From contig OX597833.1 in assembly GCA_951406725.2 (NCBI GenBank), positions 57,412,001 to 57,476,000 on the forward strand: DNA of 64,000 bases, read 5' to 3'. The notes beneath the pieces are model-generated. The model saw only the letters and a program-made list of their open reading frames with translations. It made no database searches and was not told the origin of the DNA. This DNA is from Octopus vulgaris (Eukaryota). Both the position numbers and the translations under genes were made by a program. Shown piece by piece: positions 1-41,680 of this stretch. Position 1 is the first letter of the stretch. Every line of letters starts with the position of its first letter.

Positions 1-26
1 AACGATAAGGACAATATACTGTTAGT

Positions 27-2261: not shown

Positions 2262-2808
2262 TATATCTAATTTAAAAAAAAAAAAAAGAATGGGGGCGGG
2301 GATGAATTGAAACATTTACAAACTATTAGTTTGTGGCTATAATGAATTCAGCCACTATTTAGAGTAATGTCATTTAAAATTTTTAAAAATTACTTTGTTT
2401 TTACCATCTTAGGTATATCATCTTATCAAATAGAAAAGAAAAAGAACAAAAGAACTCACCAGATTTTCAGTTAATTCATAACAGATAAAAGTAGTGTGGA
2501 ATACACACACACACTTACCTACAAATAAAAAAGAGAGAATATGTCAGAAGACGTGTCTTTTATTCAATACACATGATAACTTGTTTTCAAAAACAAACAT
2601 TATTCTTATCACAAATAACAATAATACTATTACTATAAACAGTATGAATAATAATACTTTCTATTATTGGCACAAAGCCTGAAATTTTGGGGCAGGGGTC
2701 TAGTCAATTATATTGACCCCAGTGCTCAACCGGTACTTAATTTATCAACCCAAAAAGGATGAAAGGCAAAGTTGACATTGGAGGAATTTGAACTCAGAAT
2801 GTAAAGAA

Positions 2809-3392
2809 GGCGCAGGAGTGGCTGTGTGGTAAGTAGCTTGCTTACCAACCACATGGCTCCGGGTTCAGTCCCACTGCGTGGCACCTTGGGCAAGTGTCTT
2901 CTACTATAACCTCAGGCCGACCAAAGCCTTGTGAGTGGATTTGGTAGACAGAAACTGAAAGAAGCCTGTCGTATAGCTCCTGCATGCATTTTTTTCTCTC
3001 CATGTTTCTTTTCTGTGTATCTTTCTGTTGAAGAGCGTAGGCTCGAAACGTAAAAGACTTGTTTTACTTCTATTCCTGAGCGCCATACTAATACAATTGT
3101 TTATTTGTACTCCACCTGCCTTCGTCTTTTGTTTATTTTCATAAAGTTTCCCATTATATATATATATATATATGTAAGTGTGTGTATATGTTTGTGCGTC
3201 TGTGTTTGTCCCCCTAACATCGCTTGACAACCAATGCTGGTGTGTTTATGTCCCCGTAACTTAGCGGTTCGGCAAAAGAGAACGATAGAATAAGTACTGG
3301 GCTTACAAAGAATAAGTCTTGGGGGCGATTTGCTCGACTAAAGTTGGTGCTCCAGCATGGCCGCAGTCAAATGCCTGAAACAAGCAAAAGAG
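2809..3392 (+). mobile_element. SINE-A full length, with an insertion in its internal (TA)n tract
   Basis: GGCGCAGGAGTGGCTGTGTGG (A-box-like), GGTTCAGTCCC (B-box-like), CORE-like CCTTGGGCAAGT, internal microsatellite and GGTGCTCCAGCATGGCCGCAGTCAAATG tail. Many copies in the window. Confidence 0.85.
3020..3057 (+). ncRNA. Minimal type I hammerhead-ribozyme-like fold (variant core CUGUUGA) in a ~180-bp repeat at 2976-3155
   Basis: Stem I TCTTT/AAAGA, core CTGTTGA+A, stem II GAGC-GTAG-GCTC, then GAAA, CG, TA. Related copies at ~23750 and 47756. Confidence 0.6.
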
Positions 3393-4652
3393 TGTGGATG
3401 CAATGCCACTAAGCATGTTGTCTGGCATGCTAACAATACAAATAATAACGAATGATGACATATTCATTCTTAATAGATTCTGGCAGATTCAAATGTGAAT
3501 ATGTCAATTGCTGTGGTATTTTGTCATTGTAGAACAACTCCATTCAGACAATGTGTGTTCTCGATACACTAGATTCATTAGCATAAGGAGACTTTGGAAC
3601 ACCTAATGTTTCAACATCATTGTGTCCCCTCAATTAAAGTTGCTCTGGACAAATGAATCTAAGTCTGTATCTCTTCATCATAAATTCAACAAATTGTTTG
3701 CTGGTGCATACTGATATCTACCAGTTGATATCTTCTACTATAGGTATATCAACCAAAGAAGTCCATCATATGCATATTAAATTACCAGTTGATAATATCT
3801 TCTACTATAGGTATATCAACCAAAGAAGTCCGTCATATGCATATTAAATTATGTATGCATGCATGCATGTGTGTGTGTGTCCTGTTTGTCACCCATCACT
3901 ACTTGACAACTAGTGTTGGTTTGTTTTCATCCCCATCACTTACTGATTCAACAAAAATGGATGATAGAATAAGGTACAAGGCCATTTGGGTAGGGCGTAA
4001 TTCGAGGAAGATTTACTGCTGTTTCTAGCAGATTGAGTGACTGCTGACCTAAATTAACCCTCAAGTCAACAACACGGCTTCAAAGTGAGTTGTTCAGTGT
4101 GGTAGACATAGCAGCGTAATCTCCCTCGAATCACACTTTATCATCTATAAAAAAGAAACAAACAAATTCACCACCACCAGCATTGGCTAATTATATAGGG
4201 TACACAATTTCTTGGTGGGGATGATGATCATGGGGTCTGGGGTCTGAAGATGTAATGCCTTTGATCTTCACCAGGAGCTAACAACAACAACGGCAATGAT
4301 AATAATAACCCACACAAAGTCTAAGAGGACATTTTAATCTTATTTTTAAATCAACAAGTTATTGGCTGCGACTGGATAATTACAGGTACTGAGGAGTCAG
4401 TGAAGTGGATGAATTCAAGCGTGAAATGAACCAATGTGACATAACAAACTTAAATAACAGACAAGAGAACAAACAGTTTAACCCTAATAAGACCAACCAG
4501 CCTGAGACTGCTTCTGGATCAATGATACAATCTACCCTCTTTTAAAAGCTTATCAAAATTACAACCTTCCCTCAAAATTCCAAGTTAATTTATGGTCCAA
4601 ACACCAGCTTAATATAGAGAGTTATTTTAATAATAATAATAATAATAATGAT

Positions 4653-5069
4653 GCGCAGGAGTGGCTGTGTGGTAAGTAGCTTGCTTACGAACCACATGGT
4701 TCCGGGTTCAGTCCCACTGCGTGGCATCTTGGGCAAGTGTCTTCTACTATAGCCTTGGGCCAACCAAAGCCTTGTGAGTGGATTTGGTAAATGGAAACTC
4801 AAAAGAAGCCCGTTGTATATATGTATATATATATATGTGTGTGTGTGTGTATGTTTGTGTGTCTGTGTTTGTTTGCATCCCTATCACTTATATATATATA
4901 TATATACATATATACAACGGGCTTCTTTTGAGTTTCCGTCTACCAAATCCACTCACAAGGCTTTGGTCGGTCCGAGGCTATAGTAGAAGACACTTGCCCA
5001 AGATGCCATGCAGTGGGACTGAACCCGGAACCATGTGATTCATAAGCAAGCCACTTACCACACAGCCAC
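4653..5069. mobile_element. Two SINE-A 5' halves in inverted orientation
   Basis: 4653-4870 on plus and ~4889-5069 on minus, with (AAT)n on both flanks. Confidence 0.85.
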
Positions 5070-6505
5070 ACTTTATAATAATAATAATGATCCTTTCTAC
5101 TACAGACACAACACCTGCAGTTTTAGTAAGACACCACAAGTACCATCTTCACTACAACCACCACTAGGGCCATAGTTATTACCATCCTTACTACCATCTA
5201 AACAACAACCTCCCAACAAGTAGCCCCACCATCAGTGTAACTACCACTGCCACCACAAACTGCTAGAGTCACCACTGCAGTTCCCTCCACCACCACTGCC
5301 TTCACCAGACTACGGGTATTGTGTTTGAGACCTGACCCTTGAAGGCCCCCTCCTATTACATTTATTGCTCTTCCCTCCTCACCCCTAGCTCTCTCTTTCT
5401 CAGTCATATTTTAAGGGTGTTGAGTTCAATTATACCCTTTTCACTCCAGTACAGATTTTATTTTATGGTCTACAGAGATGTGAACAGACTGAAGAGGAGG
5501 TGGAGGAGGAGGTTGAAAACCAGAGGGAGGAGGAGGAGGAGGTGGTGGTGGTGGCGTGAAATATTTTAACACAATCTTTGTAAAAGAGAGGGGATTGCTT
5601 AACAGAGGTGGAGAGTACTGTTGAACTGAAGTGATTTACAAGGGATATATTTCATTGCCAAAGCTTCCAGTTCAAACTCTGTGTCAGTAGAGAGAGAGAG
5701 AGACAGAGAGAGAGAGAAAGCAATGGTGGGATGCGAGGTGGGGGATAAAGAGAAAGAAGAAGAGAGATGAAATATGCTCCAGTATTTTCTGATTTTTTTG
5801 GGCTTACTCCTTTGGTAAGAAAAATTCTCAGTTGGAGATGGAAGGAAAAATAATGACAGTAGCTGTGAAGATGATGATGGCTACGGTTGCAATTAATGAT
5901 GATGATGATGATGATGGTGGTCATGGTGGTAGTTCTGATATCTGCTACACCCCCACCATATCACCACAATACTAAATGTCCCTACCTGACTAGGACCCCC
6001 CCCCCAAAAAAAAAAAAAAATAGAATCTTAACGGTGGCTTACTGGTTAAGAAGCTTGCTTTGCAGCCAACCATATGGTTTTGAGTTCAGTTTCATTGTGA
6101 AGCACTTTGGTCGGCCCAGGGTTATAGTAGAAGACACTTGCACAAAGCCTTGTGAGTACATTTAGAAGACAGAAACTGGGTGGAAGCCCAACATACGTAG
6201 GCATTTGTGTGTGTGTGTGTATCTCTATTTGTACCTACCACCCACCCAACCACTGATTGATAACTGGAGTTGGTTTGTTTACATCCCTGTAACTTAGTGG
6301 TTTGCTACAAGAGTCTTAAAGAATAAGTACTCTTTCGCCACAACTTTCTCTCACTCTTCTGTTGGCCTGCTTGCTTAGCCAGCAGGGTGGTGTCACTTGA
6401 AGGCTAAAACAATGCAAAGCGCATTGTGACCAGCGATGTGTAGCAACATCTGATAGCCTGGTCGGTCACGGTGATATATATATATATATAGATATATCTA
6501 TATAT

Positions 6506-23912: not shown

Positions 23913-24529
23913 ATGGTAAGAAGCTTGTCCTCAACCAAATGGTTCCGTGTTCAATACCACTATATACATACATATATATGTGTGTGTGCGTGTGTGTGTG
24001 TGTGTGTGGCAAGCAGCCTGCTTCCTAACGCATGATTCTGGGTTCAGCTCCACTGCGTAGCACCTTGAGCAAGTGTTTTTTACCATAGCATCCAGCCAAC
24101 CAAAGGCTTGTGAATGGATTTGGTAGACGGAAACAGAAAGAAGCCTGTAGTATATATACATATATGTGTGTATGTGTGTGTCTGTGTTTGTTTGCTCATC
24201 ATTGCTTGACTACTTGTGTTGGTTTGTTTATGGACCCATAGCTCAGCGGTTCAGCAAAGAGACCGATAGGATAAATACTAGGCCTAAAGACAAGTCTTGG
24301 GGTCGAATTGCTTGACAATAACACTTCAAGCTGGTGCTCCAACATGGCCGCAGTCAAATGACTAAAACAAGTAAAAGAATAAAAAGACACACACACACAC
24401 ACACACACATACATATATATATACAAACTGGCCCTGTGCTGTCAAAAACGACGGCTAATTGTAGTATTTTATATATAAATATCGATGGTAAATCAAATTC
24501 ATACACTTGTCAATGTTCACAAACATACA

Positions 24530-24712
24530 TCATCATCATCATCATTGTTCGACCGTGGTTGAGACAATGGAATTTACCATGTTGCGCCAGACTTCACGGT
24601 CCATCATAGCATTACGGAGGTCCTGTTGCTGGATGCCTGTATCCCTGGAGATTACATCAGGATAGGAGAGTGTGCGCCCTCTGGTGTTGCGAGTAGATGG
24701 CTTCCAGAGGAG
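24530..24712 (-). pseudogene. 3' end of an RTE-like LINE ORF with (TGA)n tail
   Basis: LLWKPSTRNTRGRTLSYPDVISRDTGIQQQDLRNAMMDREVWRNMV resembles RTE-clade ORF C-termini (W.P..GR..D..M.DR..WR). The stop codon runs into the trinucleotide tail. Confidence 0.75.
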
Positions 24713-24930
24713 AACAAACACAGACACACAAACACGCACATACACACATATGTATATACATATATACGACGGGCTTCTTTCAGTTTCCGTCTACGAAATC
24801 CACTCACAAGGCTTTGGTCGGCCCGAGGCTATAGTAGAAGACACTTACCCAAGGTGCCATGCAGTGGGACTGAACCCGGAACCATGTGGTTCGTAAGCAA
24901 GCTACTTACCACACAGCCGCTCCTGCGCCT
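24713..24930 (-). mobile_element. SINE-A 5' half fused to the RTE-like 3' end
   Basis: Consensus head up to the end of the internal microsatellite. The whole unit is flanked by a 22-bp direct repeat. Confidence 0.9.
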
Positions 24931-25565
24931 ATGTCAATGTTCACAAACATACACATGCTTCCCTTGTACACACACACACATATATTCATACAGAGTTGAA
25001 ATGCTGTTTGATTTTCCATTTCGGTGTTGAAAGCTCACCATCCCACTACCACTTTGCCATCACCCCTTCCTTTCTCATTCATATGTTATGATGGAGAAAA
25101 ACACAAGAGTATTATTATAGTAGATACCATGATGGTCTTCTGTAGCGTTTCTATCAACTGAGTGCTCTGACAAGTCCATTTGTCAGCCCAGTGATTTAGT
25201 GGAAAGCACTTACCGCAAATGCCATGTAATGGAGCTAAACTCAAAACGATTCAACCATGTCTATAATTATACTGTTTTTTTTTTTGTTGTTATTTTAAAT
25301 ATTGACACTGACATACCTCTTAGCCGGACACTTAACTCTATATTCCTCAGTCTATTGATTTCCAGTTCTTGAAGAAATTTACTGTTTTCTGAAGACTTAC
25401 ATCCTATATTTTTTCATCCACTTAACAACAGGAAGTTATAAAAACCTGAAAACCTCAAAAGTGCTGGGTTCAATATGAATTTACCAGGATCTCTTGGAGA
25501 ATATTTCTACTGTTTCAAGCACACATTGACACAAGCTGTCATTCAAATCTAATGAATTCCTTCTG

Positions 25566-41465: not shown

Positions 41466-41680
41466 TTTTATTTTATTTTTTAATTTTTTTTATTTCGTCT
41501 AGTTTCAGCTCACGAGCTGTGGCCATGCTGGGGCACCGCCATTTGGTGTTGCTACATGATTTTACTTCACGAATGCTGTTTAGCAATTGACATTTGGTGC
41601 ATGAGAGAGTTTGGTGCAGCTGCCCTCATCTGCACCTCCTGTCGCAAAGTTGGTTCATCTGGGACACCTGACAGGATTTT
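41466..41680 (-). pseudogene. 3' end of a CR1-like LINE (ORF2 C-terminus plus 3' UTR)
   Basis: ILSGVPDEPTLRQEVQMRAAAPNSLMHQ resembles invertebrate CR1 ORF2 ends (VPD.P..RAA..NSL..Q). A short UTR with a hairpin and an A-rich tail follow. Confidence 0.7.

Follow-up and report, generated by a model that had tools for sequence, protein, structure and literature searches.

A chimeric insertion of 402 bp, in which the 5' half of a SINE precedes the truncated 3' end of an RTE-type LINE in the same orientation, is confirmed in a 64-kb stretch of Octopus vulgaris DNA (here called the window; all positions refer to this whole stretch). One 22-bp target-site duplication (TSD) surrounds both parts, and the insertion is a single, apparently dead-end retrocopy. 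It is a retrocopy of a kind known from mammals and lizards and not a new repeat family. That it formed as a single insertion is highly probable when the routes through RNA are taken together. The likeliest of these, to which we give about an even chance, is a jump of the LINE's reverse transcriptase from its own RNA onto a SINE RNA at a short microhomology.

The target-site duplication and the host repeat

The 22-mer TGTCAATGTTCACAAACATACA occurs at 24508-24529 and 24932-24953, the two copies being 100% identical, and has no third site in the 64 kb of the window. The intervening 402 bp, read on the minus strand, consist of about 219 bp of SINE head (24931 to ~24713) followed by the last 183 bp of the LINE, that is, 167 bp of ORF end and an (ATG)n run. 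The TSD copy on the element's 5' side is the one at 24932-24953; in the copy on the 3' side (24508-24529), the first two bases (minus strand) overlap the LINE tail unit, as they do in ordinary copies of this LINE.

The target of the insertion is an older interspersed repeat (24426-25125, right end approximate) with paralogues that are 89-94% identical. Among the 29 paralogues fetched, 23 carry a stretch resembling the 22-mer once and the other 6 represent a variant without this stretch; neither a second copy nor the exact 22-mer was found in any of the 29. In 13 of these paralogues, the right flank of the window aligns best from the base that immediately follows. These empty sites carry one undeleted 22-mer-like stretch, so no target sequence was lost at insertion. 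At TSD positions 15 and 20 (plus strand), both TSD copies have A, whereas most paralogues have T (20 of 23 and 19 of 23). Because the two copies share bases that most paralogues lack, the duplication is younger than the host-repeat copy in which it lies. The 22-bp repeat is a true TSD and not a chance repeat, as the preliminary description of the window had claimed: a single 22-mer-like stretch is present in 23 of the 29 paralogues and a double one in none. The accompanying claim, that the SINE head and the LINE tail went in as one insertion, is supported, both parts being bounded by this real TSD and the paralogous empty sites agreeing with a joint arrival.

The host repeat itself is unclassified. 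A first look gave at least 1153 candidates for it, its variant has about 69 extra bases at the TSD site, and, to judge from contig ends, the repeat may have a CTAG close to its left border. When public read runs were queried with a 136-bp flank, which is itself repetitive, thousands of paralogous contigs stacked up; one 78-bp contig from run X1 is exact over the flank, the TSD, and 16 tail bases, and is too short for bridging. No empty allele was seen among the loose ends listed from these runs with that repetitive query.

For comparison with other copies of the same LINE, we compiled a non-random sample of 218 distinct copies (the best 30 of at least 1193 candidates from a first look, the first 100 of 163 matches, and 91 of the first 100 of 256, nine rows of the last list being already included; three duplicates were dropped). 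The 5' end was not reached in 5 of the 218, which leaves 213 scored copies, namely, the chimera locus and 212 others. A clear TSD was found in 95 of the 212; 20 copies lie in simple repeats, and 97 are without a TSD of at least 7 bp. Among the 95 TSDs, 92 are 7-13 bp long, two are 15 bp, and one is a 40-bp call inside a tandem repeat. The TSD of the chimera, at 22 bp, is twice the LINE norm. Around 58 full-length SINE rows (with a few duplicates among them), flanking repeats outside simple sequence do not exceed 8 bp. The 22-bp TSD is therefore atypical for both the LINE and the SINE, although less so for the LINE. Other candidates for long TSDs among the LINE copies were rejected as simple or tandem repeats (L027, L096, L134, L167, and L344) or as chance matches (L022 and L113).

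The TSD also resembles the SINE. Its bases 5-11 (minus strand) are identical to the last seven SINE bases before the junction, and the likeness extends to 9 of 11 over the first 11 bases; about 0.8% of SINE positions are expected to match the TSD likewise (80 copies). The SINE 7-mer on the junction side was found in none of 146 other targets of the LINE.

Origin of the SINE and LINE parts

The SINE part (24713-24931, minus strand) begins at the SINE's usual first base, 24931, and comprises a tRNA-like head, a CORE-like motif, and a simple-repeat middle, being cut where a C-run normally begins. It is 86-94% identical to many of the copies in the window, which holds well over ten SINE heads. By eye, a box A-like element was recognized at 24909-24919 and, about 44 nt after it, a box B-like element at 24866-24876 (both minus strand); from this spacing and the usual consensus, we take these to be putative boxes A and B. 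In the window copy, box A starts with C in place of T, a private change that is uncommon across SINE copies. ARAGORN found no tRNA genes in the SINE head, and Rfam gave no tRNA match. The Pol III boxes proposed in the preliminary description are retained as putative motifs at tRNA spacing, seen by eye. A CCTTGGG motif (24848-24854, minus strand) matches the heptamer named in the available text of Kojima (2018, PMC5786205) as conserved in CORE and Ceph domains; these seven bases mark a candidate CORE domain in the SINE.

The closest SINE relatives, L265 and L270, have five differences from the window copy over the first 165 nt. Against the nearest group (L263-L270), two differences in 165 nt are private to the window head, a comparison biased toward likeness because an exact match over 53 nt served to choose the group. 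Three pattern lists of 82, 63, and 8 matches, of which 30, 30, and all 8 rows, respectively, were inspected, yielded no donor SINE locus that combines all the private changes; when the lists were compared by coordinates, by eye, only the chimera locus was common to all three.

The usual 3' tail of this SINE is shared with a LINE other than the RTE-type element of the insert. Alignments of this tail to the 3' UTR of a second LINE family score 67 and 54, compared with 47 for the best of 500 shuffles and 21 for the RTE tail. The 3' end of the second family lies at ~41480-41676 of the window (minus strand), where the 3' UTR has the SINE's tail motif, and further copies are found at L214-L232. The nearest full-length relative of this family shares only 25% identity with the RTE ORF, and a Pfam search with the 312-aa C-terminal piece gave no match. 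A first look yielded at least 1470 candidates for this family, the best matches being 94-96% identical. Judged by the shared tail, the second family may be the partner LINE of the SINE; there may also be a closer one. We presume the family to be CR1 from the appearance of its C-terminus. Hence, of the CR1-like tail that the preliminary description ascribed to the SINE, the similarity to the 3' end of another LINE family holds, whereas the name CR1 is a presumptive label. One LINE here has a named Argonauta relative.

Several other arrangements of the SINE were observed. At 4650-5080 of the window, two inverted SINE 5' halves about 10 bp apart are alike at 154 of 163 bases, and neither has a 3' half. 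At 2807-3400, about 200 bp of a different repeat separate the head of a SINE copy from its 3' half, which continues beyond. At a further locus (L064), another (ATG)n-ending element, by eye unrelated to the RTE-type tail, lies within the simple-repeat middle of the SINE.

The 3' part of the insert is a 5'-truncated LINE with its native tail. It consists of the final 56 ORF codons of a young LINE of RTE type (24545-24714, minus strand) and an (ATG)n tail (24530-24544, minus strand) that supplies in-frame TGA stops. A first look gave at least 1193 candidates for this part in the assembly, with a best match of 98.9%; upstream of the matched stretch, the 29 other top-matching loci have 5'-truncated LINE and not SINE. 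A Pfam search with the 56-aa ORF fragment gave no match. The LINE part has two differences in 167 nt from a full-length copy (L126; G000:C3:129216901-129220945), which is about 3630 bp long, lies within a SINE head, and is flanked by a 7-bp TSD. The single ORF of this copy is open over 1051 aa from stop to stop (1046 aa from the ATG), ends at the (ATG)n tail, and contains RVT_1 (3e-30) and Exo_endo_phos (6e-7) domains, with no zinc-finger Pfam match.

Three features of this full-length copy are those of RTE elements. It has a single ORF with an AP endonuclease and a reverse transcriptase, and no ORF1. Its microsatellite tail, (ATG)n, lies directly at the stop, and a microsatellite at the ORF end is described for RTE in the accessible part of PMC9115989. 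Finally, it carries the conserved RTE 5' UTR domain, its positions 481-525 agreeing with the RTE-5' stretch of OegopSINE in 35 of 45 columns (by eye); this domain occurs also in one Ingi and one R4 element, according to the portion of Kojima (2018, PMC5786205) that was available. Together, these features of its sequence support an RTE-type donor for the 3' part, in agreement with the preliminary description. No clade name appears among the 120 listed homologues of the LINE, and the PDB entries are limited to L1 and R2. Proteins from public assemblies (P0001-P0011) are 79-85% identical to the reverse transcriptase half of the LINE and may provide a lead for its horizontal transfer. With two differences in 167 nt for the LINE part and two private ones in 165 nt for the SINE part, the two look equally young, at about 1.2%.

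Copy number and formation of the join

At the SINE/LINE junction (24712-24714, minus strand), one base is common with a typical SINE copy and three with the closest relative, L265; the variant that gives three shared bases is present in 6 of 57 SINE copies. Searched against the assembly (2.80 Gb, 227 contigs), the junction pattern gave one match at zero mismatches and one at up to three. None of the 212 other LINE copies sampled has the build of the chimera. The single junction copy and the 0 of 212 point to a single event and not a new family, which is also how the preliminary description, in proposing this search, had said that one copy should be read. The product has not spread in the assembly, where it occupies one locus. 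A SINE-like head stands just upstream, on the same strand, in 6 of the 212 other copies. Four of these (L025, L037, L126, and L171) are nested insertions in which the SINE resumes behind the LINE tail; in the other two (L106 and L330), the heads are old, 76% alike, and without an enclosing repeat. At the chimera itself, a simple nested insertion was rejected, as the SINE 3' half is missing behind the tail and the flanking repeat takes in the head as well. DNA filler captured from a random SINE of the genome is unlikely, given that the fragment ends precisely at base one of the SINE.

The insert contains no run of four T. The first run of at least four T downstream of the SINE start lies 484 bases from it, at 24444-24448 (minus strand), and could act as a Pol III stop, in which case the RNA would be about 490 nt long. 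The Pol III-type head, the RTE 3' end, and this lack of a T-run inside the insert are what would be expected of a new SINE family with an RTE tail, its switch of partner already under way, and RTE-tailed SINEs are common according to the part of PMC5786205 at hand. Nevertheless, with a single copy, nothing similar among the 212 other LINE copies, and a changed box A, we consider a new family hardly credible.

Under the favored explanation, a template jump, the RTE protein would have nicked the older repeat and used its own (AUG)n tail for priming, as the signature of the family suggests. After about 183 nt, the end of the cDNA would have switched to a SINE transcript within a run of pyrimidines common to both RNAs. 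Before landing there, the enzyme possibly copied a few target bases that match the SINE at this point; target bases copied first and then used for landing would explain the likeness between the TSD and the SINE as well. The intact first base of the SINE suggests that the enzyme then reached the 5' end of the SINE RNA and rejoined the target 22 bp on. A SINE part that stops exactly at the first base of the family is as expected of an RNA template, and the single TSD around both parts, together with the undeleted empty site in the paralogues, also supports the jump. Further points in its favor are the equal apparent age of the two parts, the three bases shared with L265, the lack of a parent with this junction in the assembly at up to three mismatches, and the precedent of the Alu/L1 and U6/RTE chimeras. 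The RTE-type enzyme appears to change template often. Among the 213 scored LINE copies, 14 have 5' inversions or internal deletions: nine inversions of the twin-priming type (L004, L007, L024, L029, L137, L177, L307, L320, and L329), a rearrangement best known from L1, and five internal deletions. At least five extra bases are present at the 5' junction in 19 of the 95 copies with a clear TSD, a few of which may be chance calls; in L040, L155, and L173, the extra bases are copied from the target, and L040 repeats the end of the TSD beside the LINE.

Several observations count against the jump. A plain jump leaves the identity of TSD bases 5-11 with the SINE end unexplained, the length of the TSD is atypical for the LINE, and no donor SINE locus was found. 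By analogy, too, a full-length SINE might be expected, since most Alu/L1 chimeras have a full-length Alu, and here the SINE is truncated. Moreover, ordinary nested insertions make the same SINE-head/RTE junction in DNA. Because such nested LINE-in-SINE loci exist, template switching is not established as the maker of the join, and the jump of an RTE reverse transcriptase onto SINE RNA, stated in the preliminary description, is kept as the likeliest route next to the read-through that nested loci allow.

Such a read-through is the main and a serious rival, though less probable than the jump: a LINE nested mid-SINE at another, lost locus would have been included in a Pol III RNA, which was then copied from the LINE tail into the present site with no switch of template. 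LINEs are indeed nested at the same SINE position in L271-L274 (four of the six matches to the LINE tail plus the SINE middle motif), and three of the 212 sampled copies (L025, L037, and L171) are also nested in the simple-repeat middle of intact SINEs on the same strand. A read-through would fit the absence of a run of four T within the insert, and an overlap of 2-4 bases is commonest at the 5' junctions of ordinary LINE copies (35 of 63), as at the chimera. In the parent, the sequence behind the tail would repeat that preceding the junction; it could form pairs with TSD bases 3-11 and so account for the likeness of TSD and SINE. However, no parent locus with the chimera junction is present in the assembly, a single haplotype, at up to three mismatches; the LINE lengths in L271-L274 differ (238-420 bp); a daughter-type structure was found in none of the 212 other LINE copies; and the route does not by itself explain the 22-bp TSD. 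More generally, and equally tentatively, SINEs might swap their partner LINE without any template switch, when an RTE element nested below the Pol III promoter yields a read-through RNA that is retrotransposed from the RTE tail, the post-tail bases steering it to a complementary target and lengthening the TSD.

A series of three events in DNA is unlikely: a whole SINE would have inserted with a 22-bp TSD and a LINE nested in its middle, after which the SINE 3' half was deleted between similar 11-mers, or was lost through the LINE insertion itself. Nested insertions are common and the 9 of 11 likeness between the junction-side SINE and the start of the TSD suits a microhomology deletion, but all three events would have to fit within about 1% divergence, and the repeats flanking the 58 full-length SINE copies are at most 8 bp outside simple sequence. 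More improbable still is a ligation of RNAs, in which a cleaved or prematurely terminated SINE RNA was joined to a LINE RNA fragment before reverse transcription. This route is named for U6/L1 and Alu/L1 chimeras in the available text of Law and Burns (10.1101/2025.02.02.635956) and would agree with the common orientation of the two parts; against it, there is no T4 stop at the SINE cut, and ligation does not require the shared bases seen at the junction. The weights that we attach to all these explanations are a matter of judgement and were not computed.

Relation to known chimeras and tail exchange

In human, 113 Alu/L1 chimeras are reported in the accessible part of Law and Burns (10.1101/2025.02.02.635956), 88.5% of them in sense orientation and mostly with a full-length Alu. 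As far as that text describes them, the octopus chimera is similar in that a SINE lies 5' of a 5'-truncated LINE in the same orientation, within one TSD, with parts of similar age and in single copy. In contrast, Alu is the normal passenger of L1 and mostly full length in those chimeras. The octopus insert joins an RTE-type LINE to a SINE cut off halfway, the ordinary tail of that SINE is similar to a different LINE family, and the TSD is double the length normal for the LINE. Chimeras of U6 and RTE in Anolis, and 3'-truncated U5 chimeras formed by internal switching, appear in the available portion of Doucet et al. (PMC4476161); the U6/RTE, U6/L2, and U5/L1 chimeras treated there resemble the present one in placing a Pol III or other small RNA 5' of a LINE 3' end, in those cases by template switching. 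Unlike them, the octopus chimera has as its 5' part a mobile SINE with a putative internal promoter, so that its product could in principle be transcribed and spread. Set against the mammalian cases, the SINE of this chimera seems to belong to another LINE, and it keeps its putative internal promoter.

A template switch is the proposed origin of the RTE-tailed SINEs WALLSI2, Ceph-SINEs, and IdioSINE2 in the text available of Kojima (2018, PMC5786205). The octopus chimera shares with these families, so far as they are described in that text, a tRNA-like head and a CORE-like motif joined to RTE-derived sequence. Those families are amplified and usually contain pieces of the RTE 5' UTR, whereas the chimera exists once and has no more of the LINE than its ORF end and tail. 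As for the LINE, RTE-2_OV of Octopus vulgaris, as characterized in the accessible section of PMC9115989, is likewise an RTE element with one ORF, at the end of which lies a microsatellite. It differs in having 1109 aa and a zinc finger, compared with 1046 aa and no zinc-finger Pfam match here, and the two elements are set apart by description, not by sequence. Among titles and abstract openings in the open literature, we found no report of a single SINE-head/RTE-tail retrocopy in an invertebrate or of the nested read-through route.

The preliminary description regarded the locus as a snapshot of a SINE changing its partner LINE. This is not upheld as more than a possibility, in view of the lack of daughter copies and the private change in box A. 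Nonetheless, the locus bears on how SINEs acquire new tails. Tail exchange in SINEs is usually inferred from finished families; the octopus chimera is one dated product of what is proposed as its first step. In an invertebrate whose relatives have RTE-related Ceph-SINEs, a putative CORE-type head has been placed on an RTE tail; the raw material for tail exchange thus does arise, yet it can stay single copy. The locus further suggests a second route of tail exchange, by nested insertion and then read-through. If that route is the true one, the chimera would be a daughter of the first generation, and the at least seven nested loci found would serve as a standing reservoir of parents.
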